DNA from: Gammaproteobacteria bacterium
GTDB taxonomy: Bacteria > Pseudomonadota > Gammaproteobacteria > Steroidobacterales > Steroidobacteraceae
Direction: 5' to 3'
Length of the DNA stretch: 24,000 nt
NCBI GenBank assembly: GCA_025359565.1
Contig: JANYFY010000005.1
Coordinates: 19,746 to 43,745, forward strand
Under the pieces are notes generated by a model that saw only the letters and a program-made list of their open reading frames with translations, did not search any database and was not told the origin of the DNA. The translations under genes were made by a program, and so were the position numbers. This document shows, piece by piece, positions 1,096-20,901 of the stretch. Numbering within the stretch: position 1 is the stretch's first letter; the number at the start of each line of letters is the position of its first letter.

Positions 1096-2841
1096 ATGCA
1101 CAAGTCCTTCCCCAGCCTTTCCCGATTCCCCAGCCTTTCCCGACGAGAATTTATAAAATTCCCCGTGGCCGCATCCGCGATCGCGCTGCTGCAACCGCAA
1201 GCCTTCGCGCAAGCTCAGTCGGAGCTCGTGATTCGCAATGCCCGCATCTACACCGTAGACAAAGCGCGTCCTTGGGCAGAGGCAGTGGTGATCAAGGGTG
1301 ATCGAATCCTCTGGGTGGGCAGCGACCAGGAAGTGCCCCGAATTGCCTCAGCTAATGCCCGGACCATCGATGCCGGTGGGCGTCTGATTTTGCCGGGGTT
1401 CATTGACAGCCACAATCACATTGATTCCGGTTCCGACCCCGACGCGCTGCTCATCGGCGATAGCAAATCACTCGCGGAGATTCAGGAGAAGGTCAGAACA
1501 TTTTCCAAAGTACGACCTGATTTAAAGTGGATCATTGCGAACGGTTGGAATTACTCAATCTTTCCTCGCGGCACCCTACCCAGCAGCCGCGACCTCGACG
1601 GCCTGACCGGAGGCCGACCCGCTTTTCTGGTTGCCTACGACTCCCATACCATCTGGCTCAACCCAGAAGCCATTCGCGAATTGGGCATATCGAAAAGCAC
1701 CACCACAGCGGATGTACAAAAAGATCCCAAAACGGGTGAGCCGACCGGCATTCTTATCGGCCTTTCCAGCGGCATCTCTGAAGGCTGGCTCACGCATCTG
1801 CCGGTCCGAACCCGGCAGCAGGAGTACCAGAGTTTCATGACCAACCTTGCCATGGCAGCGGGGTTCGGTATTACCACGGTGATCGAGCCACAATGTACTT
1901 TGCAGCGCCTGCAAATGTATAACGACGCGCGTCGGCGTGGTGACATCCCTTTGCGCATGCAGGTGGCGCTCTACCACCGCCAGCACACACCCGCCGCAGA
2001 AATCGATCAGTACAACACTGCACGCCGAAAATTTCATAACGATGACACGCTGCGCATCTCAGCAGTGAAGCTCTACAGCGATGACGTCGTCGAGCCGCAC
2101 ACCGCAGCTATGCTGGCGCCCTACACCGATCGCCCCGACACTCAAGGAGCGACTCTTTGGACTCCGCAAGACATGAATCACATAGTCGCCAAAATCGACA
2201 AGCTAAAGTTTCAGTGCTTCATCCATGCGACGGGTGATCGAGGAATTCGTACCGCGCTCGATGCCTTCGAGCACGCGCGGCGCGTCAATGGTGTGCGCGA
2301 CAGCCGACATCAGATCGTTCACGTGGAATGCCTGTCTCCCCAAGATGTTTCGCGTTTTAGCGAATTGGGTGTGGTGGCTTGTATGCAGCCGCGGCATTGT
2401 GCTCCGGACATCACGGGCCAGTGGGCAGCAGCGGTGGGACCCGAGCGTTCGAAATTGGCATGGCCCTTCCGCAGTCTTTATAATTCTGGCGCCACACTAG
2501 CTTTTTCCAGCGACTGGGACGTGGCCGAAATGGATCCTCTGGTGGGCATTTATACTGCGCTGACTCGCAAGGGACTCGACGGAAGTCCCGAGAAAGGTTG
2601 GATTGCCGATCAAACCATTGATCTGGAAACGGCTATTCGCGCGTACACCCTCAACGGCGCTTATGCGAACTTTACAGAAGTGAACCGCGGTTCAATCACG
2701 CCTGGAAAATATGCCGATCTGATCGTGATGTCGGACGACCTATTCACAATGCCAGCCGATCACGTCAAAGATACGCATGTGCTTCTGACACTACTGGGGG
2801 GACGCGAAGTGCATCGCGCTCCAGATGCGAAATTTTTCTAA
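1096..2841 (+). CDS. Tat-exported amidohydrolase-family protein (Amidohydro_3 / YtcJ-like metal-dependent hydrolase)
   Basis: 581-aa ORF. It has the twin-arginine signal SRREFIKF followed by a hydrophobic stretch and AFAQA. The HxH metal motif is IDSHNHIDSG, with further His (CFIHATGD, HQIVHVE) and a C-terminal Asp motif (AFSSDWDV), typical of amidohydrolase TIM barrels. Confidence 0.85.
   Translation: MHKSFPSLSRFPSLSRREFIKFPVAASAIALLQPQAFAQAQSELVIRNARIYTVDKARPWAEAVVIKGDRILWVGSDQEVPRIASANARTIDAGGRLILPGFIDSHNHIDSGSDPDALLIGDSKSLAEIQEKVRTFSKVRPDLKWIIANGWNYSIFPRGTLPSSRDLDGLTGGRPAFLVAYDSHTIWLNPEAIRELGISKSTTTADVQKDPKTGEPTGILIGLSSGISEGWLTHLPVRTRQQEYQSFMTNLAMAAGFGITTVIEPQCTLQRLQMYNDARRRGDIPLRMQVALYHRQHTPAAEIDQYNTARRKFHNDDTLRISAVKLYSDDVVEPHTAAMLAPYTDRPDTQGATLWTPQDMNHIVAKIDKLKFQCFIHATGDRGIRTALDAFEHARRVNGVRDSRHQIVHVECLSPQDVSRFSELGVVACMQPRHCAPDITGQWAAAVGPERSKLAWPFRSLYNSGATLAFSSDWDVAEMDPLVGIYTALTRKGLDGSPEKGWIADQTIDLETAIRAYTLNGAYANFTEVNRGSITPGKYADLIVMSDDLFTMPADHVKDTHVLLTLLGGREVHRAPDAKFF
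1108..1143 (+). repeat. Perfect 18-bp tandem duplication (2 x TTCCCCAGCCTTTCCCGA) inside the signal-peptide coding region
   Basis: Units at 1108-1125 and 1126-1143 are identical. Together they encode FPSLSR-FPSLSR directly ahead of the RR motif. Confidence 0.95.
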
Positions 2842-2939
2842 CGCGTAAGGAACGGCCACAATAAAACCGTTGATGTTGTGACTCCACTGTTTCGCAGGTC
2901 GATTCGTTGGTTGCTTGCGACGAGGCGCCGCGAATGTTA

Positions 2940-5273
2940 TTAGTAATGACGCCAAGCGACGGAAATACCCATGGTGCGAGGTCGATTGGTAAAAATTCGC
3001 GAGCGTGTGGACGAGTCATAGTTGTCGGAGGTAAATCGGGACAAGGCGGCCTGATTTTTCATTACATTGTTGACGAACAAATTGGCTTCCCACTGCTCGT
3101 GGACTATTCCAACTCGTAGGTCGAGTAAGGTGTAGGCCCGCTGGAAAGTCGCAGGATCTGTACGCTCGAAGTCGGGATAGGATTGAGACACATAGTGAGC
3201 ATCAGCCCGCAAAAATCCGTGGTAACGGGGCGCGAGATCGAAGGTATATTTTGCCATTGCATTACCATTCCAGCGCGGGACATTCTCGAGTTGTTGTCCC
3301 TTAATACCATTGAGCGAAGGCGCGTCTACCGCTAACACCGCCTTAGTGTAACCCGCACCCGCACCGAGTTGAATGTGCTCATTTACCTTGCTCTCTATTT
3401 CAAGCTCGGCACCGTGCACCACGGCCTTACCGGCATTCTCGGTGATTTGGTACGAGCACGGCAGGGTGCGACCTTGCTGGATTTCATTCCAATGAATGTA
3501 ATACGCAGCAGCATTGACAGTCATCGCACCACCGAACCAACCGCTCTTGGCGCCGGCCTCGTAACTCCACAGGCTGTCCGGTCCATACGGACCATAGTCT
3601 TGGCCGCACCCCTTCTGCGCCAAGTTGCTGGTGTTAACGCCGCCGGGGCGCACGCCGCGCGACACCGCGGTGTAGTAGAGCTGATCTTGGGTCGCCTGAT
3701 AAGAAATCTCGGCCTTAGGATTGTAGCCAACATCCTTCGCCGATCCTGCCGACACGCTGGGACCCCCATTACTGAGCCCGCCCTCATTGCGTACGGTTGT
3801 GTACTGAAGTTCATACCAACGAAGGCCGGCGGTTGCTCGCAACTTGTCGGTCAGCTGGTAATTCAATTCGGTGAATACTGCGGATTGCTTCGGGGAGTAA
3901 TCGCCCTGCTGAGAATAATTCGTATTGTCTAATGGACCCGGTCCGAACAAAGCGATCGACGTGGGTGAGTTGCGAAACAGCGCGTCATAGTTCGGAATGA
4001 CGTAGTTAACGGAGTAGTGGCGATTGCTATTGTTAAAGTAAGCACCTAACACGCCGCTTAAAGGGGATCCCGATGGCGAAAATGCGAATCTTAATTCTTG
4101 GCTGAATTCGCGCGTGGTGACCGTAGGGGCGTAAGCGTTTGCCACGAATTGTCCCTGTGGAATGTTGACTTCCAGCGCTTCAGTCTCATCGTCGGGGGTT
4201 GTTTCCTGGCGGCGCATGTACGAAGTAGTCGACAGTAGAGTGCCAAAGCCGAGATTGTAGTTCACGGTTAGATTGCTAAGCACGAAGCGATCGGTGTAGG
4301 CTTCGGACACATTAAAAGGGCGACGCTGCAACAGCGGGCCGCCCGATTGCCCGGTCGGTACATCGTAGTTACTGGGGGCTCCCGCTCGCAGATCCTGAAT
4401 CCAAACAGATGGCGTGAAGGTCAATGCTTCAGTCACGGCAATTTTCAAGATCGTCCGCAGACTGTAGCGTTTTTCGGTGTTGACGTTGCGAATCACCGCA
4501 CTCGGTAGGGATGGCGAGATGGGGTACGTGGGATCGCCTGGCGCTGTCGCCGGGTTGGGCGCCCAGACACCAATTTGGCGATCAATGAATCCGCTGTAAT
4601 CCTTGTAGGTTGCCACCACCCGTAACGCCGCGCGTTCTGCAATCAGTGGGACATTCAGCATGCCGTCAAAGCGAAAATTACCACCGCCATGATTGGTATC
4701 AGAGCCCTCGGTTTTTATTGCAGCCTCGATTTTAGACAGATTCGGCTGGTTAGTAATCAATCGTACCGTTCCACCCATGGAACTTGCGCCATACAGAGTG
4801 CCTTGTGGTCCGCGCAGGACTTCGATACGAGCCAAGTCGAACAGATCGACATCTATGCTGGCGTTAGCCCCATCACCCCCCGACGGTAGGATCGGTGTTT
4901 CATCAACGTACAGGCCGGTAGTCGGCGCGTTGCCGCCAATCGAGGCGATACCGCGAATCGAATAGCTACTACGCCCGGGACCTGCGGAGTTCAGCGTCAC
5001 TCCCGGGATGCGTGCGGCTAAGGAGGAGAAATCCTGTACGCCAGTCTCAGCAAGCGCCGCGGAGGTAAATGCCACGACACTTAAGGGTACCTTTTGTAGG
5101 CTCTCGCTGCGTTTTTCTGCCGTCACCACGATATCCTCCAGCGCATACGGAGTAGCGGCAGTCGAAACGGGCGTCACTTGTTGAGCGAGCACCCATGAGC
5201 TGGTAAAAAATAACGCGAGTGACGAAGCTACGACGCATTTGCTGGGGTTTCGGGTACTTAGCCTCATCTGCAC
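2940..5273 (-). CDS. TonB-dependent outer-membrane receptor
   Basis: 777 aa with a signal peptide (…FFTSSWVLAQQ). The plug motif is DIVVTAEKRSESLQKVPLSVVAF, followed by RGPQGTLYGASSMGG. A long beta-barrel region follows, with an aromatic C-terminus (…GISVAWRHY). Confidence 0.9.
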   Translation of the reverse strand: MQMRLSTRNPSKCVVASSLALFFTSSWVLAQQVTPVSTAATPYALEDIVVTAEKRSESLQKVPLSVVAFTSAALAETGVQDFSSLAARIPGVTLNSAGPGRSSYSIRGIASIGGNAPTTGLYVDETPILPSGGDGANASIDVDLFDLARIEVLRGPQGTLYGASSMGGTVRLITNQPNLSKIEAAIKTEGSDTNHGGGNFRFDGMLNVPLIAERAALRVVATYKDYSGFIDRQIGVWAPNPATAPGDPTYPISPSLPSAVIRNVNTEKRYSLRTILKIAVTEALTFTPSVWIQDLRAGAPSNYDVPTGQSGGPLLQRRPFNVSEAYTDRFVLSNLTVNYNLGFGTLLSTTSYMRRQETTPDDETEALEVNIPQGQFVANAYAPTVTTREFSQELRFAFSPSGSPLSGVLGAYFNNSNRHYSVNYVIPNYDALFRNSPTSIALFGPGPLDNTNYSQQGDYSPKQSAVFTELNYQLTDKLRATAGLRWYELQYTTVRNEGGLSNGGPSVSAGSAKDVGYNPKAEISYQATQDQLYYTAVSRGVRPGGVNTSNLAQKGCGQDYGPYGPDSLWSYEAGAKSGWFGGAMTVNAAAYYIHWNEIQQGRTLPCSYQITENAGKAVVHGAELEIESKVNEHIQLGAGAGYTKAVLAVDAPSLNGIKGQQLENVPRWNGNAMAKYTFDLAPRYHGFLRADAHYVSQSYPDFERTDPATFQRAYTLLDLRVGIVHEQWEANLFVNNVMKNQAALSRFTSDNYDSSTRSRIFTNRPRTMGISVAWRHY

Positions 5274-7224: not shown

Positions 7225-8654
7225 ACATTGCAATTCGGCTTTTCTTAGGTTTTTTTCTAATCGTCGGGCTAGCGGCGTGGTTCATTTTAAATATTGCATT
7301 GGGAGAAATCGAACCGGGTGTTAGGCAGGCCGCAGAGGACACAATGGTTGACATGGCCAATCTTTTAGCCGAGCAGGTCGACGATGTGACGGCCGGTGAT
7401 GTTGCGCATGGACGATTTTCAAAAGCGGTGCAATCTGCTCTGCAACGCTCACCGCGCGCATCTATCTACGGCGTCGACAAAGAAGAACTCGATCTTCGTA
7501 TTTACATGACCGATGCAAGTGGAATTGTTGTCTATGATTCCGAAGATATCGCGGTAGGTGCTGATTACAGTCATTGGCGCGATGTCGAGCGCGTTCTGCA
7601 CGGTGAGTACGGGGCGCGTAGCACCCGCGAAGACCCAACCGACCCTGGGTCTTCCTTCATGTACGTCGCAGCGCCGGTAATGCGCACCGGTAGGCTTGTC
7701 GGTGTCATTACGGTCGCCAAACCGATGGCAAGTCTTACACCCTATACAAAACAAGCACAGCTCAAGGTGCAACGCGCCGGCATTGCTCTGCTGACGGTGT
7801 CTACGCTCATCGGCCTGCTGTTCACCGGGTGGCTTACTTGGTCGCTTAATCGCCTGCGCGACTATGCCAGAGCGATCGCCGAGGGACACAAGGCAACCGC
7901 ACCCACGACGGGTGGTCGGCAACTGTCCGAATTAGCAAAGGCACTGGCGCTCATGCGCGATCGACTGGACGGCAAACAATACGTCGAGAATTACGTGCAA
8001 AGCCTCACCCACGAGATCAAAAGTCCTTTGACAGCCGTGCGCGCAGCAGCCGAATTGTTGCACGAGAATCCCAACGCCGAGGATCGGCAGCGTTTTATCC
8101 ACAATATCAGCGAGCAAACCGAGCGAATGCAACAAATTGTCGAGCGCTTATTATTGCTCGCGCGCATCGAACAACTGCAACTGCCTGAGGAGGCCAGCGA
8201 TGTCGCGCTCGTCGATTTGGTGCGCACCAGTCTGACCAACTACGGCAGTCGGCTCGCCGAGCGCCGCCTTACGCCGCATATCGATTGCCAGGACAATAGT
8301 AGAGTCGTAGGCGATTCGTTTCTTCTGCAACAGGCCGTCGACAACCTGATCGATAATGCTATTGATTTCTCTCCTGACGGATCGCCAATCGTGATCGCAT
8401 TAACAACCGATGATAAAAATAGTACGCTCTCCGTGCGCGACTGCGGCCCTGGAGCACCCGCTTTTGCCGTCGCCCATATCTTTGAGCGTTTCTATTCGCT
8501 GGCGCGCCCACTTACCGGCAAGAAAGGTACCGGGCTTGGACTTGCGTTCGTGCGCGAGGTGGCCAAAATTCATGGCGGTACGGTGACTTTTAATAACGTC
8601 GCCAGTGGTGGTGCCTTGGTACAAATGACGGTCTCGCGCAACGCGACTCGTTGA
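7221..8654 (+). CDS. creC: Sensor histidine kinase CreC
   Basis: GTG start overlapping the creB stop (GTGA). It has two TM segments flanking a periplasmic domain. The H-box is THEIKSPLTAV, the N-box is DNLIDNAIDFSP and the G-box is GTGLGLAFV. Synteny is creB-creC-creD. Confidence 0.85.
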   Translation: MNIAIRLFLGFFLIVGLAAWFILNIALGEIEPGVRQAAEDTMVDMANLLAEQVDDVTAGDVAHGRFSKAVQSALQRSPRASIYGVDKEELDLRIYMTDASGIVVYDSEDIAVGADYSHWRDVERVLHGEYGARSTREDPTDPGSSFMYVAAPVMRTGRLVGVITVAKPMASLTPYTKQAQLKVQRAGIALLTVSTLIGLLFTGWLTWSLNRLRDYARAIAEGHKATAPTTGGRQLSELAKALALMRDRLDGKQYVENYVQSLTHEIKSPLTAVRAAAELLHENPNAEDRQRFIHNISEQTERMQQIVERLLLLARIEQLQLPEEASDVALVDLVRTSLTNYGSRLAERRLTPHIDCQDNSRVVGDSFLLQQAVDNLIDNAIDFSPDGSPIVIALTTDDKNSTLSVRDCGPGAPAFAVAHIFERFYSLARPLTGKKGTGLGLAFVREVAKIHGGTVTFNNVASGGALVQMTVSRNATR

Positions 8655-10460: not shown

Positions 10461-12422
10461 CTATGGCGCTGCGCGCTGCGCAATAATGGTTTTCCCGTCA
10501 ATTCGTCCGTTGAGCGATGCAATGGCGTTCGGCTTGCTGTCATCCCAAGTGATGGTCAACTCGCCAATCTGCGTAGCTTCGCGCAGCAAATCCAAAACCC
10601 CCACAATCGCACCAGTCTTTAAGTTCCAGGAAATTCGTCCTGACACGCTAAGATCTGTCGTCCAACGCGCCCGATCCAAGAAAATGTTATACCCGAGAGT
10701 GGTGGCAACATAGGTATATCCGCCCCCTCGCAAGGCGAGTGCAGTGTTGCCCAAGGCTACGGCAAAGCGGGCAACGGCATCGCCGGCTGTCTCGGCTGCC
10801 ACTGAGGCAAGTTGCAACTCACGCACTCCGCCGGTATTTCTCGTGAGGGGCTGTGCGGGATCTACGCCAGAACTCAACAGCGGAAAATTTGATACCGCAC
10901 GAATTGATCGTACCCGAGAGAGGCAGCGTGTGTCATCGACGTCTAAATCACGGTAAAAATGCCGCACTATTTTCGCAGCGCATTGCACAAGGTAACCGTC
11001 ATAATTCGAATACCCCAGCGCAGTAACGTGTCCCTGGTTCGGCACGATAATTTGAGTCGCGTTCGGAAATTGACGTGCCGTCTGGCGACCATCTTCAGGC
11101 GATGTTACCGAATCGAATTCACCATTCAGAATCAACGTGGGAACCGCGGGAAATTTTACGTTAGGCGGAATTGACTGAGCCTGCGGATAGGCAGGACTGG
11201 TCGCGGGCCAATCCAAACACAAAGCCAACGGATTAATGTTGGCGCTCGAACCGAGCGCTTCATCAATTGTAAAGGGAGCAAAAAGAGTGGGACGTTGGTT
11301 CTTAGTCAGCTCAATAGACTCATCCAACTGCCGCCGGCGTGTCGTCAGCGGCGCGGAAAGATCAAAAAGCAACGGATAGTCGCTGCACGAGACTGCCGTA
11401 AAAAGGCCGGCGCTGTAGGTGCCCGGATCAAAAATCGAGGAAGTATTATATTCAGCCGCGAGCCGCAAAAGCGGTAGTGCATCACCGGCGCGAAACCAAA
11501 CACGCGCAGCAGCATCGAGCTCACGGTACACCGTAGCGGCATACCCGCCATTCGAGATAAGCGCATAAAGCGTTGAGGGATCGAGAGTCACGGGTTGGAG
11601 TTGACCGTTGGCATCTGGAGCAATGCCGGTGATCGGATGCTGGCGCAGTGCTCTCACCAGCGCCGCGATTCGATCTGAGGGGCGTCCGCCCAGCTCATCG
11701 CATTCAGCCGTTCGTTCACAGGTCAGATCGATTCCCTGGATGGCAGTCGCATAGTCTGTCGGAAACCAAGGATCAGTGATGCGTACCGGATAGGTGCCAT
11801 CGAAGACTAGACTGCGCACGCGGTTCGGGTAGCGTGCAGCAAACACCTGTCCAAAGAAGGTGCCATAGCTATCGCCATAGAAATCGACCGCATCTACGTC
11901 AAGCGCATCCAGTACAGCGACCACATCGGCAGCCGCTAGAGCGGTACCGTATAGGTCCGCTGTGCGTCCTAGCTGTCGTCCGCAGGCTTTAAGTGAAGAC
12001 GGATCCGTCGAAGCAGCACCTTGCAGTGCGGGGCAGTCAATTGCTTCCGACACGCCCGTCCCCCGTTTATCGACAATCAGCACATCACGCCGGTTGCGCA
12101 TCGGGGCAAAGAGGGCCAAGTAATTGTCCCGCGTGCCCGTCGAGGAATAACCAGGTCCGCCTTCCTGAGGCAAAAAGGTCCCCAGAGCGGGCTTGGAACT
12201 GTCTCGCCGCGGGTACCACTCGAAGCCGATGTTGATGGACCCGGAGACGGCGCCGGTCGGGTCAAGCGGGCGATCGATCGAACCGCAATATCCCAACGGG
12301 TTGGAGTTGCACTTGACCAACGTCAGTTTGCCGACGCTGAGTGTTGCTGTCGGCTTGGCCAGAATCGGCGTGCTGACCGCAACCATCGTCAATACTAAGA
12401 CCCAATGCAAATAGTGCCTCAT
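10461..12422 (-). CDS. Secreted alpha/beta hydrolase (TAP-like / S33-type peptidase family) with extended C-terminal region
   Basis: Signal peptide MRHYLHWVLVLTMVAVSTPILA from ATG 12422; the ORF-track start at 12506 adds 28 implausible residues. The nucleophile elbow is YGDSYGTFFG and the catalytic His context is VPNQGHV. About 165 further residues follow the His. Confidence 0.75.
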   Translation of the reverse strand: MRHYLHWVLVLTMVAVSTPILAKPTATLSVGKLTLVKCNSNPLGYCGSIDRPLDPTGAVSGSINIGFEWYPRRDSSKPALGTFLPQEGGPGYSSTGTRDNYLALFAPMRNRRDVLIVDKRGTGVSEAIDCPALQGAASTDPSSLKACGRQLGRTADLYGTALAAADVVAVLDALDVDAVDFYGDSYGTFFGQVFAARYPNRVRSLVFDGTYPVRITDPWFPTDYATAIQGIDLTCERTAECDELGGRPSDRIAALVRALRQHPITGIAPDANGQLQPVTLDPSTLYALISNGGYAATVYRELDAAARVWFRAGDALPLLRLAAEYNTSSIFDPGTYSAGLFTAVSCSDYPLLFDLSAPLTTRRRQLDESIELTKNQRPTLFAPFTIDEALGSSANINPLALCLDWPATSPAYPQAQSIPPNVKFPAVPTLILNGEFDSVTSPEDGRQTARQFPNATQIIVPNQGHVTALGYSNYDGYLVQCAAKIVRHFYRDLDVDDTRCLSRVRSIRAVSNFPLLSSGVDPAQPLTRNTGGVRELQLASVAAETAGDAVARFAVALGNTALALRGGGYTYVATTLGYNIFLDRARWTTDLSVSGRISWNLKTGAIVGVLDLLREATQIGELTITWDDSKPNAIASLNGRIDGKTIIAQRAAP

Positions 12423-13350: not shown

Positions 13351-14832
13351 CTAGGAGCGGCGGCGCAGGCCGGCTGGGATGAATATAATGGCCAGCAATT
13401 CAAACATACCGTGCGCGGCCAATGCCATCAGCGCGGCGGGAATCGCGCCGGTGAGCACCGTGGGCACGTCGTTCAAGGCCAGTCCCGACACGATGAGAGC
13501 GCCATAACCCCCCGCGCCTACCAATGCCGCAAGCGTCGCCGTGCCGATACTGACGATGGTCGCCGTCTTGATGCCCGCCAATAGGGTTGGGCTTGCCAAT
13601 GGCAGCACCACTCGAACAAGAACCTGCCACCGATTTAATCCGAAGGCGCGCGCATTTTCCATATGAATGGGATTGATGGACCGAATGCCCGTGAAGGTGT
13701 TTAGCACCACCGGCAGCAAGCTGTACAGACACAGCGCGACCAAGGCCGGTTGAGTGCCGACGCCAAACACTGGAATAAGAAAGCACAACAGTGCCAGCGA
13801 AGGAACGGTCTGGATCAACGCGCTCGACAACAAGATCGCCTGCCCAGCCGCACGAAAGCGTACGGCTGCCACCCCTGATGGGATGCCAACTAGCACCGAA
13901 AACAGCAGCGACACGCCGACCAGCCATAGATGTTCGCGAGTGCGTCGCAGTACTTTATTCGTCAAACTCTCGCTCTTCGGCACATCGCTGCCGAGAAACT
14001 GTGCGGCAATCTTCTCGAAACTAAACTTTTGAATATCAGCCATCGCGTTCATATCCCGCATAGCCCTTTCGCTGATCTTGCCTTCGAGTCCGAGCAAAGT
14101 CTGCCATTCGCTGGCGTGTTTTTCGACGAACGATTGTCTGGCCACCCAGACTGCCTGGTATTGCGGAAAGTAGTTGTGATCGTCCCTGAGCAAGCGAAGA
14201 TTGAGTTTCTTGATTTTGGCATCTGTCGAATACACGTCGATCACATCAACCGCATTTTTCTCAATGGCCTGAAAACTTAAGGAATGCTCCATACGGTTGA
14301 CATTTTGCGGATTGAACGTCAGATGATAGTTTCCCATCATGCCCGCAAATCCGTCCTGCCGGCCCATAAATTCGTAGCTGAATGCCGCCTTGAGGGTGGA
14401 TTCGATGGCAATTAAATCGCCGATGGACTGCAAACCATGCTTTTGCGCGAACTCATCCCTCACCGCCAGAGCATAAGTGTCGTTAAAGCCCAGTGATCCG
14501 GAAATCGTCAGCCCCAGGGGCGACAGCGCCTGACGAATCTCATCCAGCGATTTTAAGTTAGGCTGTTTGAGTATCGCTTCAGCAAGGGTCCCGGAGTAAT
14601 CCGGATACACATCGATGGCGCCGCTTTTCAGGGCCTCAAATAAAATTCCCGTGCTGCCCATGCCGAGTTTGCGGCTTACCGAAACGTGGGTGGCTTCCAG
14701 GGTCTGCGCCGCAATCTCGCCCAATATATAACCTTCAGTGAAAATCTTGCCGCCGACTACAATGTTGGCCGCCCCAGAGCTCATGGGAAACAGCCCGAAC
14801 AGTAGCAAGACTGTGCATGCCCAGGGCCTCAA
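13351..14832 (-). CDS. ABC transporter fused substrate-binding/permease protein (glycine betaine/choline/osmoprotectant type)
   Basis: The N-terminal signal peptide and OpuAC/ProX-like binding domain (GSTGILFEALKSGAIDVYPDYSGT) are fused to a multi-TM permease. The permease carries the EAA loop (ENARAFGLNRWQVLVRVVLPLA). The TTG start overlaps the stop of the ATPase gene. Confidence 0.8.
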   Translation of the reverse strand: MRPWACTVLLLFGLFPMSSGAANIVVGGKIFTEGYILGEIAAQTLEATHVSVSRKLGMGSTGILFEALKSGAIDVYPDYSGTLAEAILKQPNLKSLDEIRQALSPLGLTISGSLGFNDTYALAVRDEFAQKHGLQSIGDLIAIESTLKAAFSYEFMGRQDGFAGMMGNYHLTFNPQNVNRMEHSLSFQAIEKNAVDVIDVYSTDAKIKKLNLRLLRDDHNYFPQYQAVWVARQSFVEKHASEWQTLLGLEGKISERAMRDMNAMADIQKFSFEKIAAQFLGSDVPKSESLTNKVLRRTREHLWLVGVSLLFSVLVGIPSGVAAVRFRAAGQAILLSSALIQTVPSLALLCFLIPVFGVGTQPALVALCLYSLLPVVLNTFTGIRSINPIHMENARAFGLNRWQVLVRVVLPLASPTLLAGIKTATIVSIGTATLAALVGAGGYGALIVSGLALNDVPTVLTGAIPAALMALAAHGMFELLAIIFIPAGLRRRS

Positions 14833-15575
14833 TGGAACTCGCTCGCGTCTGGCAGGGTGCGCTGCGCATTGATAAACTCCGTGACAAACGGACTGGCAGG
14901 ATTTAGCAGCAGATCGCGGTAAGTACCGGTCTGCATTATTCGCCCACCGTGCAGCATGGTGATGTGTTCAGCCAGATATACCGCCTCGCCGAGATCGTGG
15001 GTGACCAATAGCACCGTCTTATCGAGACGCTTAAAAATGGATTTTAGTTCCTGCTGTAAACTGCGGCGGATCAGTGGATCTAATGCGGCCATGGGTTCAT
15101 CGAGCAACATCACGTCGGGATTCATCATCGCTGCACGCATGATCGATACACGCTGTTTCTGCCCACCGCTCATTTCATAGGGAAAACGCGCCAGAATCTC
15201 CTCGCCTAAGTCCACCAGCGTGCGCAGCTGCTCGACACGATCCTCGATCCGGGTGCGCTTCCAGCCCCGCAATTTTGCGATCAACGCGACATTGTTTTTG
15301 CCGCTAAGATGCGGAAAAAGACCACCATCTTGAGGAACATATCCGATGCGATCGGCCCATTCGATTTGTGTGAACGACAAGAGGGCTTGGTCATTGATCT
15401 TGACGTACCCCTTGTCGAAGGGAATCAAACCAAGGGTAATCCGCAGGAGCGTGGTTTTGCCCGACCCGCTTGAACCAATCAAGGCATGCGTGGCGCCCTT
15501 CGGAACCACGAGATTCACGTCGCAGAGGACCGCTCTATCCTCGAAGGTCTTAAAAATGTGCTGCAGTTCGAGCAT
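14829..15575 (-). CDS. ABC transporter ATP-binding protein
   Basis: Walker A GSSGSGKTT, Q-loop YVPQDGG, signature MSGGQKQRV, Walker B MLLDEP and H-loop VTHDL. I prefer ATG 15575 (MLELQHIFKTF) over the ORF-track TTG at 15650. Confidence 0.85.
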   Translation of the reverse strand: MLELQHIFKTFEDRAVLCDVNLVVPKGATHALIGSSGSGKTTLLRITLGLIPFDKGYVKINDQALLSFTQIEWADRIGYVPQDGGLFPHLSGKNNVALIAKLRGWKRTRIEDRVEQLRTLVDLGEEILARFPYEMSGGQKQRVSIMRAAMMNPDVMLLDEPMAALDPLIRRSLQQELKSIFKRLDKTVLLVTHDLGEAVYLAEHITMLHGGRIMQTGTYRDLLLNPASPFVTEFINAQRTLPDASEFH

Positions 15576-15615
15576 GTCGGAGACTCTTAGCGTGTTCGCA
15601 TTGTGCGCCGATGAT

Positions 15616-15637
15616 CGCGATTTCGCCAGAAATCGCG
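15616..15637. promoter_or_regulatory. Perfect 8-bp inverted repeat CGCGATTT-N6-AAATCGCG in the ABC-operon leader
   Basis: Arms at 15616-15623 and 15630-15637, 41 bp upstream of the ATPase ATG. It could be an operator or an RNA hairpin. The function is not determinable from sequence. Confidence 0.25.
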
Positions 15638-15687
15638 GAAACGCCGTCAACCGCTGCTTATCGGCGCCTTTCCCGCTAGCACAGCCT

Positions 15688-16788
15688 TTACCATCCGATC
15701 AAGCGCCTCCATATTAGGCGGATCGCCGCCAGGTCGATCTGGCCGACGGTATGCAGTGTCAGTTGGAAGTTGGGGAGCCAGCCAGTGGTGTGCGGCTGCT
15801 TGGGCTGCTGGCGCCAGAGCTGCTCGCTCACTCCGGCGATGATCCCCCCGAATCTCGTCTCGATGTAACCCATTTCGCACAATCGATCAAAGCTGATCGT
15901 GTCCGCGGCGTACGCGTTGTCCTTCGCGATCACGACGACGAACGGGTCCGTGAATAGCTTCGCGGAGCACAGGAATTCGCCGATCATACATACCGCAGCG
16001 AGGCGAGCCTCGCCGCTCCGGATACCTCGCGGCAACCCATGGCGAAATTGACCGCGCCGCATGATGCAGTTTGCCGAACAATTCCTCGACAGTGGGATTG
16101 CGTCGCCGCTGACTACACAATTGAACTGGTCGCACGTCGTTGAGGTACGTCCGATCTCACTCTTATCTAGTATGCCCAAGCTCGCCAGCCGCCCCTGATT
16201 TGCAAGCAGCCGTTTGCGGCGATTCTCGATGGCCTCAGTTGCGGAGTGTGCAAGTGAGCCGTTGAAGGCATCTAAGTCTCCACGGACCCAGATAAGCTGC
16301 TGCTCGATCGCCTGGAGTGCGCGTTCTATTTCTGGCTTCAAATCCCGAGCCGCATCGTGGGGTGTATCCCAGGACAGAATCAAAGACTGATTTTCGATGA
16401 CGCCGCGCGGAAACACTGAAGTAAACATGCTGGGTCGGCAATAGAATAACTCGCTGTCGCCGTCGAACGGGACCACCCGAATGCGTTGACCCGGTATGTA
16501 ATAAGGCCCTCGGTGTACTTCCAAGAAAAATCGCTCTCTGTCCCTACTGACCTCGATGCGGCATTCGGATTCGTCTACGGTCCATGGGTCGCGCCGAAGA
16601 TCGATAGGATTGATCCGGTATTTGTCGACGAGGTACGCCGCAAGATCAGCCGGTGCCGTATTGAGCAAGCGGTTGGGTTCCAAATTATCGACTTCGCGTT
16701 GTAGCGCTGCACGCGCCCCTTCGATGACTTCGCGCAATTCTCGGCTCGCGAACAGGTATCCGTCACCCTTGGCCGCTAAACGAAACAT
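15688..16788 (-). CDS. Hypothetical 366-aa protein (unplaced N-terminal domain, coiled helix, CX4C-X12-CX3C motif, unplaced C-terminal domain); distal gene of the four-ORF cassette
   Basis: ATG 16788 is preceded by GAGGGG 7 nt upstream and lies 12 nt after the previous stop. The long uninterrupted ORF has a protein-like composition. Cys219/224/237/241 form a zinc-ribbon-like spacing. I recognise no catalytic motif. Confidence 0.6.
   Translation of the reverse strand: MFRLAAKGDGYLFASRELREVIEGARAALQREVDNLEPNRLLNTAPADLAAYLVDKYRINPIDLRRDPWTVDESECRIEVSRDRERFFLEVHRGPYYIPGQRIRVVPFDGDSELFYCRPSMFTSVFPRGVIENQSLILSWDTPHDAARDLKPEIERALQAIEQQLIWVRGDLDAFNGSLAHSATEAIENRRKRLLANQGRLASLGILDKSEIGRTSTTCDQFNCVVSGDAIPLSRNCSANCIMRRGQFRHGLPRGIRSGEARLAAVCMIGEFLCSAKLFTDPFVVVIAKDNAYAADTISFDRLCEMGYIETRFGGIIAGVSEQLWRQQPKQPHTTGWLPNFQLTLHTVGQIDLAAIRLIWRRLIGW
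16096..16119. repeat. 24-bp direct repeat, copy 1 (GATTGCGTCGCCGCTGACTACACA)
   Basis: It matches 20820-20843 at 23 of 24 positions (C/T at 16101/20825). It lies inside codons 224-231 (CVVSGDAI) of the 366-aa ORF. The flanking sequence is unrelated. Confidence 0.9.
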
Positions 16789-16800
16789 GTCGCCCCTCGA

Positions 16801-17076
16801 CTATTCACGCAGCGTGACCCTCACGCGCTCGGGTACCATGTCTCGGATAAGGTATAAGCCGGGCTCTTGAGCACCCGATACACTTGCGCCTGGCGAAACT
16901 TCCAACACGACGTGCCGCGGCCCGGTGTATGAGGCCAGGCGGCTTGTCTCACCGATCTGCGGCAAGCGGGTGCCCAAGTACTCGAGATGATGGCCTGCAA
17001 TGAGCTTATTAGCTTGCGCCTCGTCAGCGTGTATGACTTTCGTCAACGGTGCTTCATGCACCCCGGAGCGCACCAA
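16801..17076 (-). CDS. Hypothetical 91-aa protein
   Basis: TTG/GTG start with no clear SD. Third-position GC is enriched by eye (about two thirds). The frame is actually open upstream to 17215 and overlaps the end of the 137-aa ORF. It is in the same frame as the 366-aa ORF, separated by TAG plus 4 codons. Confidence 0.4.
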   Translation of the reverse strand: MVRSGVHEAPLTKVIHADEAQANKLIAGHHLEYLGTRLPQIGETSRLASYTGPRHVVLEVSPGASVSGAQEPGLYLIRDMVPERVRVTLRE

Positions 17077-17102
17077 CAGTATCCGGACGCGTGGTCGACG
17101 CT

Positions 17103-17516
17103 CTACATAGCTACGAGCAACCGCCGAAATAAGTGAGGATGGCGGCGGTGAGTAACCGAGCCCGTCAACTCCGACAAGATTACGTTGAACAGCCGATAAG
17201 TTGTCGCTTGACCTTCAGCCGCGTGCTGAGCTAGTGCGTCGATCTGATCCGCAAGCCCCTGAATCATTCGCTGACGCTCGATTCGCCCAGCCGGACCGAG
17301 TAAGCCATCTCTGCGGCTGTAGACGCTCAAGGAACATCCTCCGTTCTGCTGCTTGTAGAAACTGACATGAATCCGACCAAGAGTTGCTTCGGATTCAGGA
17401 ATGCACACAGCCCAAGGAAGCTGGGGGCCTGCGCGAGCCTCGACTCGACGCAGGATGTCGTCGAGATTGATAGCTTCTTTCCGGTGGGTCGCAATTCGCT
17501 CCGCATCATCTTCCAC
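17103..17516 (-). CDS. Hypothetical 137-aa protein
   Basis: GTG start with no SD, in frame with the upstream HTH ORF across a single TGA plus 7 codons. The predicted layout is helix, beta-rich core, helix. I recognise no family. Confidence 0.45.
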   Translation of the reverse strand: MEDDAERIATHRKEAINLDDILRRVEARAGPQLPWAVCIPESEATLGRIHVSFYKQQNGGCSLSVYSRRDGLLGPAGRIERQRMIQGLADQIDALAQHAAEGQATTYRLFNVILSELTGSVTHRRHPHLFRRLLVAM

Positions 17517-17528
17517 GATGGAAACGCT

Positions 17529-17544
17529 GTCAGGCCGTCAGGCC
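17529..17544. repeat. 8-bp tandem duplication (GTCAGGCC x2) spanning the HTH stop codon
   Basis: Units at 17529-17536 and 17537-17544. The minus-strand TGA stop (17538-17540) lies in the second unit. Confidence 0.9.
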
Positions 17545-17726
17545 AAATGCCGCTCGTCTAATCTGCGCCAGGCGCGTAGCGCCGCCTCAGCCGGCCCAGA
17601 GACTTTTTCGCCCTCAGCACACCATCGGGTTACCGTGCGCGGCGAGATACCCAGAAGCTGCGCTGCCTCAGTCTGGGTCAGACCCAATGCTTGAATGTGC
17701 TCCTGAAGCTCTTGTGCTGACATCAT
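17538..17726 (-). CDS. Small XRE/Cro-like helix-turn-helix protein (62 aa)
   Basis: MMSAQELQEHIQALGLTQTEAAQLLGISPRTVTRWCAEGEKVSGPAEAALRAWRRL is a typical short HTH regulator or antitoxin pattern. It is the first gene of the minus-strand cassette. I prefer ATG 17726 over the TTG at 17747. Confidence 0.7.
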   Translation of the reverse strand: MMSAQELQEHIQALGLTQTEAAQLLGISPRTVTRWCAEGEKVSGPAEAALRAWRRLDERHLA

Positions 17727-17864: not shown

Positions 17865-18146
17865 ATGCGCACAGACAACATCGTAACTGTCACCGCAGCC
17901 GAGTTTCATCGCAACATTGGGACGTACCAAGACATCGCGCTGACCAAGACAGTTACCATTACAAAGAATGGCCGGGAACGGACTGTCCTCATCTCCGCGG
18001 AAGAGTACGCACGGCTCAAGCGGCGAGACCGCCGAGTCATCTCGGCTGGGGAGCTCACGGATCGCCAAATCGCAGCGCTGCGGGAGACGAAGGTTCCGGA
18101 TCAGCACGCTGACCTGGACCGCGAGATCAAAGACTGGAAGCCGTGA
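17865..18146 (+). CDS. Phd/YefM-family type II antitoxin
   Basis: VTVTAAEFHRNIGTYQDIALTKTVTITKNGRERTVLISAEEYARLKR is the canonical Phd/YefM N-terminal fold signature. It has a strong SD, and its stop overlaps the next start (GTGA). Confidence 0.8.
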   Translation: MRTDNIVTVTAAEFHRNIGTYQDIALTKTVTITKNGRERTVLISAEEYARLKRRDRRVISAGELTDRQIAALRETKVPDQHADLDREIKDWKP

Positions 18147-18580
18147 GGTTCCCCGAACCGTATGCCGGTCTGATCATTCGCTATTCCTATCTCTGGAAGC
18201 GGGAGTTCGACGCTGGACGCGAAGAAGGCACTAACGACCGCCCCTGCGCCATAGTCATGACCATCGTAGATGAGGACGGTGACAAGGACGTGCTGGTGCT
18301 GCCGGTCACGCACAGCCCACCGGCTGATCCCGCCGATGCGATTGAGATTCCGGCGACAACCAAGAGCCGGCTCGGGCTCGACGGCGAGCGATCTTGGATC
18401 GTGATTACGGAAGCGAATGAGTTCGTATGGCCTGGTCCGGATCTCCGAGCAGTTCCGGGCCGCGATGAATCAACGATCGCCTACGGTCCATTGCCACCAC
18501 GTTTCTTCGCTCATGTGCGCGATAAATTTCTGGAGCGCGACCAGCGAGAGAAATCTGGGCGCGTGAAGCGCACTGAATAA
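18143..18580 (+). CDS. Putative toxin with MazF/PemK-like features (145 aa)
   Basis: Translationally coupled to the Phd gene. GLIIRYSYLW…GTNDRPCAIVMTIV…VLVLPVTHSPP…ERSWIVITEANEF resembles the SH3-like barrel pattern of PemK/MazF-related growth inhibitors (G-x-I/V … RP-x-V/I-V … P-I/V-T). The assignment is from memory. Confidence 0.5.
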   Translation: MRFPEPYAGLIIRYSYLWKREFDAGREEGTNDRPCAIVMTIVDEDGDKDVLVLPVTHSPPADPADAIEIPATTKSRLGLDGERSWIVITEANEFVWPGPDLRAVPGRDESTIAYGPLPPRFFAHVRDKFLERDQREKSGRVKRTE

Positions 18581-20694: not shown

Positions 20695-20901
20695 TCACAC
20701 GTTGGGAGATTTCAGCGCATCCAGGAGATGCGTGTTATGGCCCCAGGGTAGCTGTGCAACAAGCTGTTGCACAATTGCCCCGTCCGGCCAGGCCTCGGCG
20801 AACGCACTCATATACTTGAGATTGTGTCGCCGCTGACTACACAGCAGTCCCGTGGCAGATGAATGGTCGCCTACTGTTTGAAATCGAACAGGCCTTTGAT
20901 T
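20695..20901 (-). pseudogene. N-terminal remnant of a YhcG/DUF1016-family (PDDEXK nuclease) gene
   Basis: The minus-strand frame reads …NLKYMSAFAEAWPDGAIVQQLVAQLPWGHNTHLLDALKSPNV*. The segment NLKYM-x-x-FAEAWPD…IVQQ-x-VAQLPWGHN is the highly conserved YhcG N-terminal motif. There is no start codon, the frame stops after 68 codons, and the nuclease domain is absent. Confidence 0.6.
20820..20843. repeat. 24-bp direct repeat, copy 2 (GATTGTGTCGCCGCTGACTACACA)
   Basis: It matches 16096-16119 at 23 of 24 positions. Its left edge coincides with the point where YhcG homology (NLKYM…) begins. Confidence 0.9.

Follow-up and report, generated by a model that had tools for sequence, protein, structure and literature searches.

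The question raised by this locus is whether an open reading frame (ORF) of 366 codons, read from ATG to TAA on the minus strand at positions 15688–16788 of the window (the whole 24,000-nucleotide stretch of contig JANYFY010000005.1 that was analysed), encodes a new zinc-binding defence protein. The original prediction, made from the sequence alone, had described a protein with an unplaced mixed alpha/beta N-terminal region, a long helix, a zinc-ribbon-like knuckle, and a Cys-rich C-terminal domain, preceded by a strong Shine–Dalgarno sequence. As a description of the reading frame and of its first half, it held up well. The frame was found at the proposed position, GAGGGG lies 6 nt 5′ of its ATG, and the translation contains the spacing C219-X4-C224-X12-C237-X3-C241 (encoded at 16134–16066) together with three further cysteines in the tail (C268, C274, and C304). 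AlphaFold2 predicted a mixed alpha/beta domain over residues 1–145 and a single long helix over residues ~151–203, in agreement with the boundaries of 1–150 and ~150–205 proposed earlier. Block means of pLDDT were 72–98 for residues 1–205 and 31–61 for residues 210–366, the alignment input consisting only of the N-terminal halves of relatives and a LysR fragment. The N-terminal domain also stayed unplaced in the general databases, as had been supposed: Pfam and NCBIfam searches with the 366-residue ORF gave no match, neither the ORF nor the family profile retrieved anything but coiled-coil noise from the PDB sequences, and Foldseek on the ORF model found nothing (best E 1.1), leaving this N-module without a fold match in the PDB.

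A family assignment was obtained from the PADLOC collection. Its profile PDLC05036 (PDC-S54) matched residues 9–206 of the ORF at profile positions 4–200 of 410 (E 4e-47), and BLASTP aligned residues 1–206 to residues 1–207 of the 418-residue protein P0003 with 90% amino acid identity. P0003 itself matched profile positions 4–407 of 410 (E 1e-157); since it spans the whole profile, it is an intact member of the family, and the window ORF corresponds to the front half only. In both comparisons, homology to any protein family ends at residue 206, at the boundary between helix and linker. When 5.8 billion protein clusters were searched, the matches of the ORF fell into two unrelated sets, the first composed of about 58 proteins, nearly all of 405–432 residues, covering only the first 50–64% of the ORF, and the second of about 60 regulators of the LysR type (NodD in the JGI labelling), covering a different 22–30%. 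Among these clusters, full-length coverage was given only by the ORF's own cluster, with no other protein exceeding 64%. An ExK motif was present in 55 of the 58 homologues, and 48 of the 58 were full-length with both motifs. The homologues thus carry a different C-terminus, an outcome which, in the terms of the original prediction, makes the ORF a chimera.

The origin of each segment was resolved by aligning three reference contigs to the window, namely L001 and L002, which encode P0003, and L003, which encodes the 311-residue LysR-type protein P0059. On the minus strand, the N-terminal module of the PDC-S54-type gene (residues 1–206) occupies 16171–16788, an assignment backed by the PADLOC profile, BLASTP, tblastn, blastn to L001, and the AlphaFold2 model. 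It is followed at 16147–16170 by an out-of-frame remnant of the PDC-S54 linker, with a 1-bp insertion around 16165–16167: the stretch that directly follows codon 206 measures 28 nt in the window and 27 nt in L001, so the frame is already shifted over the last ten parental codons. Residues 209–224 of P0003 were found by tblastn in a different window frame, although weakly (E 3.4). Next, at 16139–16146, lies the junction of an 811-bp deletion marked by ACCT microhomology, around which the two L001 blastn segments overlap by 8 bp in the window. The missing DNA (L001 6654–7464) contains codons ~218–418, the stop codon, and ~200 bp of 3′ spacer. Beyond the junction, former intergenic spacer (15999–16146; 84% identity to L001 7465–7613) now provides codons ~215–263. 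It is succeeded by a 17-bp filler that matches neither L001 nor L003 (15982–15998), an internal fragment of a LysR-type regulator gene in its native frame (15720–15981; residues 166–252 of 311 in P0059), and finally ten unrelated codons and the TAA stop (15688–15719), the homology to L003 ending at 15720.

In reference coordinates, L001 3978–5318 corresponds to window 18644–17305 (upstream genes and the start of a partner gene), L001 5502–6653 to window 17280–16139 (the remainder of the partner gene and the PDC-S54 codons to ~217), and L001 7465–7613 to window 16146–15999, a segment that is intergenic in L001, where the gene stops at 7257. L001 6654–7464 is absent from the window, and the 262 bp of LysR sequence at 15981–15720 correspond to L003 2469–2730. 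No remnant of the C-domain and no additional LysR sequence was detected by tblastn in the other window frames. The original prediction had vaguely likened the N-terminal region to uncharacterised defence-island proteins with nuclease-like C-termini, while remarking that the C-terminus here does not show that motif. Both points were borne out: the region belongs to the uncharacterised PDC-S54 candidates of PADLOC, whose C-termini are nuclease-like, and in the window the profile match stops at position 200 and the deletion accounts for the remainder.

The zinc-ribbon interpretation of the four cysteines fared differently. The first knuckle cysteine sits three codons beyond the deletion junction; hence, all four are encoded by DNA that is spacer in the intact locus. 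Read in the same frame, C237 is Phe in L001, a 1-bp indel separates the window from L001 after the 'ANCIM' codons, and L001 has stops in the frames used by the window. Of the 31 comparable codons, 3 differ by synonymous and 7 by non-synonymous changes, a substitution pattern which is what neutral DNA gives. Residues 213–260, for which the alignment has no depth, were modelled with pLDDT values of 37–47 and with neither secondary structure nor hairpins. A six-frame translation of the genome (3.14 Mb) contained loose knuckle-like Cys spacing 518 times and the exact spacing five times, so that the pattern is rare at one spot (expected 0.013 per 160-residue tail) but not special genome-wide. With cysteines in formerly intergenic DNA, one of them replaced in the nearest relative, no homologues, and no predicted hairpins, the proposed zinc ribbon has to be abandoned. 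Logan's gene caller placed a 107-residue ORF over the spacer in L002, and this ORF was considered as a possible real Cys-rich protein; it was rejected, since the large protein collection contained no homologue of it and neither Pfam nor PADLOC gave a match. The knuckle DNA also includes the left copy of a 27-nt direct repeat (window 16093–16119 and 20817–20843; 25 of 27 positions identical), which occurs only twice in the genome. The left copy is conserved in the L001 spacer (7492–7511), and the repeat may be a site at which the island recombines or is regulated.

The supposed Cys-rich C-terminal domain is likewise composed of spacer read-through and a slice of a LysR regulator, modelled with low AlphaFold2 confidence, and it does not stand as a domain. 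ORF residues 270–356 are 87% identical to residues 166–252 of P0059 (BLASTP), and window 15720–15981 is 88.6% identical at the nucleotide level to L003 2469–2730. The regulator's helix–turn–helix (HTH), its final 59 residues, and the beginning of its effector-binding domain all lie outside these 87 residues. Thus the winged HTH (PF00126) is absent, the effector-binding domain (PF03466) is incomplete, and Pfam finds nothing in the ORF. An intact orthologue of the fragment was not found in the genome, in which the other LysR genes are 24–31% identical to it. Because P0059 is nearest to LeuO/BsrA in NCBIfam, and below the cut-offs, the name NodD is to be read as a pipeline label only. The fragment was also considered as the relic of a resident gene beside the neighbouring ABC transporter, a suggestion rejected on finding no LysR gene within 1.5 kb in six genus relatives that have the transporter. 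In two of these six, 17 kb of upstream sequence had nothing in common with the window and so gave no island borders.

The gene next upstream of the ORF is damaged as well. The window HTH, 137-residue, and 91-residue ORFs are fragments of a 360-residue Xre-HTH gene that is intact at L001 4900–5982, and since the three small ORFs are pieces of one gene, the four-ORF stretch consists of two broken genes. In tblastn searches with the L001 partner, the broken gene extended over 16819–17723 (minus strand), with residues 1–241 in one frame and residues 236–356 in another, and it has three lesions: codon 62 is a premature stop, ~183 bp (L001 5319–5501) are deleted, and the frame is shifted. Both L001 and L002 show the undamaged arrangement, in which the 360-residue gene with an N-terminal Xre-type HTH is followed after 18 bp by the 418-residue gene. 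The HTH gene was rejected as a general partner of PDC-S54, as it was absent from 80 other loci and is confined to the closest clade. Further upstream, an intact Phd-family antitoxin gene and its 145-residue partner (window 17865–18580, plus strand) are common to the window and L001. Synonymous divergence from L001 (dS) was mosaic, with values of 0.57–1.6 in the partner-gene fragments and 0.11–0.25 in the Phd/toxin genes and the PDC-S54 half, a pattern suggesting that the partner gene recombined or was replaced.

L001 represents a defence island that includes a PD-T7-1/5-like gene, toxin–antitoxin (TA) pairs, and an integrase. The coordinates recorded for this island are 2098–3144 (minus strand), 1383–1978, 4042–4757, and 10702–11982, and its contents include a 348-residue PD-T7-1/PD-T7-5-like protein (E 1e-65), PIN and Phd-type TA pairs, an 878-residue protein with faint TPR matches, and a phage-type integrase. 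Downstream of the ORF lies a core osmoprotectant-type ABC transporter, the ATPase segment of which was present in 16 of the 24 genus relatives searched, compared with none of the 24 for the PDC-S54 segment. The ATPase ORF at 14829–15650 (minus strand) has a TTG start and 273 residues, another gene caller gives 248 residues, and most relatives align only from residue ~26. Judging from these alignments, the 273-residue call is probably too long, in which case the gap to the chimeric ORF would be ~110 bp rather than 38 bp.

What the deletion removed can be appreciated from the intact family. In an alignment of 39 full-length members, the C-terminal half was the best-conserved part, holding about 50 of the 66 invariant columns. 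The invariant residues, in P0003 numbering, are E299, G-K-T-D308, E322-C-K324, and Q338-L-L-x-Y, and they follow the layout of PD-(D/E)xK nucleases. The P0003 model (mean pLDDT 82) consists of an alpha/beta N-domain (1–145), a long helix (152–204), a disordered linker (205–247), and an alpha/beta C-domain (248–412), the last with the order of elements expected for the alpha-beta-beta-beta-alpha-beta core of PD-(D/E)xK enzymes. Foldseek with full-length P0003 gave a weak match to McrC (6ut7_G; probability 0.90, 4.9 Å over 146 columns) and other weak matches to EcoT38I, BsaWI, and viral Mrr-like proteins, all with E > 1e-3; additionally, 5 of the 39 members had weak Pfam matches to Mrr_cat or DUF234. 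Matches of nucleotidyltransferase type appeared as well, equally weak, with none reaching E ≤ 1e-3; a nucleotidyltransferase relationship of P0003 is not claimed. Taken together, the PDC-S54 C-domain is likely a PD-(D/E)xK-like nuclease. This domain (profile positions ~240–407, with the invariant E, D, ExK, and Q) is missing from the window ORF, and tblastn found neither an intact PDC-S54 gene nor a separate C-domain elsewhere in the 98%-complete genome. As a class, the PDCs are computational candidates that are mostly unvalidated (PMC12988326; bioRxiv 10.1101/2024.01.29.577857), and our literature search for PDC-S54 found no paper mentioning it. The parental family may act in phage defence through nuclease activity.

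The family is widespread. When one genome per species was scanned, PDC-S54 relatives turned up in at least 583 species genomes from many bacterial and some archaeal phyla, and essentially all of the best 80 relatives were of ~414 residues; because the search patterns were taken from the C-domain, this count of 583 favours full-length copies. A filter-free search with residues 1–206 retrieved 1,643 N-module representatives. Among the best 150 of these, 61 carried the PDC-S54 C-domain, 57 ended within 45 residues past the module, nine had TIR_2 in place of the nuclease (P0178, P0190, P0201, P0204, P0205, P0211, P0228, P0259, and P0266), and one had a Schlafen AlbA_2 domain there (P0189). Several of the remaining representatives among these 150 had frameshift-like tails, and the short forms could be fragments at contig ends. 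P0052, the one short homologue on a long contig, was considered as a stand-alone N-module and rejected, since it proved to be a full gene interrupted by a single in-frame stop. That stop is located in the linker (L103 3001–4242, on a contig with 2.7x coverage), and the PDC-S54 copy of Nitrotoga sp. HW29 (L025 4001–4630) carries one among its first 210 codons; the damage in both may reflect decay or sequencing error.

These observations are best explained by the ORF being a chimeric pseudogene, in which the front half of a PDC-S54 gene reads through a spacer into a LysR fragment, an explanation that we hold with high confidence. In this account the ORF is the relic of a horizontally acquired two-gene locus, with the 360-residue HTH gene followed by the 418-residue PDC-S54-type gene, whose intact product comprises the alpha/beta domain with its helix of ~50 residues, the disordered linker, and the highly conserved PD-(D/E)xK-like nuclease domain. 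Through the 1-bp insertion after codon 206 and the 811-bp deletion, the gene has lost its stop codon along with the linker and all of the nuclease domain, so that translation from the inherited start codon and Shine–Dalgarno sequence would continue through 148 bp of former spacer, the 17 bp of filler, and the 262-bp in-frame LysR scrap until it meets a stop. Such read-through yields both the 'zinc knuckle' and the 'Cys-rich domain' as by-products, with no function of their own. Now that the effector domain is lost and the upstream partner gene disrupted, the locus has most likely ceased to act, and we infer that its product is non-functional. Set against the pseudogene reading are the structural completeness of the retained module, its preserved start codon and Shine–Dalgarno sequence, and its low dN/dS, all three taken up below, as well as the openness of the frame: the chance of ~73 non-ancestral codons staying open is ~6%, and that of an open read-through combined with the one-in-three landing in the LysR frame is ~2–3%, a figure that carries a selection bias because the ORF was chosen for being long.

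The openness of the frame for 160 codons past the homology, together with the four-Cys spacing, is also what could be cited in favour of a real protein of several domains, in which a zinc-ribbon knuckle is followed by a Cys-rich C-terminal effector domain of a new kind. This we regard as scarcely credible, as the knuckle DNA is intergenic in the nearest relative with one cysteine unconserved, the 'domain' amounts to 87 residues of the central part of a LysR effector-binding domain, and the region has no homologues, low AlphaFold2 confidence, and no hairpins. That three unrelated pieces abut within 500 bp in a 33-contig draft genome might instead point to an assembly artefact, that is, to contigs or reads wrongly joined. 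A separate Logan assembly of run SRR20627845, which may share source reads with the draft, agrees with this 6-kb arrangement without gaps and at all but one of 5,951 bp; moreover, the L001 homology continues on either side of each lesion, and the junction has microhomology, as in real deletions. An artefact is therefore very unlikely.

A further reading accepts the truncation and proposes that the shortened protein is still made and used, its N-module, a putative sensor or oligomerisation unit left without an effector, serving for example as a regulator, decoy, or dominant-negative partner and its tail being irrelevant. The module is complete, is confidently folded, and ends at a domain boundary; its start codon and Shine–Dalgarno sequence are intact; and, as a portable unit, it has been recombined with TIR, Schlafen/AlbA_2, and nuclease effectors. 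The retained half also shows dN/dS of 0.26 against L001, which is below neutrality, with 21 synonymous and 19 non-synonymous changes and dS of 0.16; the corresponding ratios are 0.04 for the Phd gene and 0.17 for its partner. Low dN/dS is, however, expected if inactivation was recent, and the value fits either recent inactivation or weak residual constraint, the 40 substitutions being too few to separate the two. Our searches yielded no genuine stand-alone gene for the N-module, P0052 being a full-length gene with an in-frame stop and the other short matches being compatible with contig-end fragments or frameshifted copies. Additionally, the genome has no intact PDC-S54 to regulate, and three separate lesions disrupt the neighbouring partner gene. 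Continued use of the truncated protein is thus improbable, and we consider it a little less probable still that the effector-less module is expressed and has been kept to act on its own upon related defence proteins, by regulating them, by serving as a decoy, or by inhibiting them in a dominant-negative manner; were it so, its retention would represent the domestication of a defence gene by truncation.

Under the favoured reading as a chimeric pseudogene, the ORF should be retired as a candidate new zinc-binding defence protein and considered a gene relic whose architecture is an accident of deletion and read-through. What remains useful is the intact PDC-S54 family, which combines an N-module of no known fold with a conserved PD-(D/E)xK-like domain. 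A common N-module with interchangeable effectors is a pattern typical of immune proteins, and for this reason the intact PDC-S54 relatives, rather than the window ORF, are worth testing. When compared to known systems, the ORF shares the N-terminal half of PADLOC PDC-S54 (PDLC05036, a single-gene putative defence candidate), but the block containing GETFN, GKTD, ECKFW, and QLLxY is deleted. With zinc-ribbon and zinc-knuckle modules it has in common two CXnC pairs 12 residues apart; in contrast to such modules, its cysteines are unconserved, lack homologues and predicted hairpins, and are encoded by formerly intergenic DNA. Of the NodD/LeuO-like LysR regulators (PF00126 and PF03466), it holds only the internal slice of 87 residues. 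Finally, the family N-module swaps effectors in the manner of modular single-chain defence proteins with TIR, Schlafen/AlbA_2, or PD-(D/E)xK effectors, whereas the copy in the window is the module without an effector.
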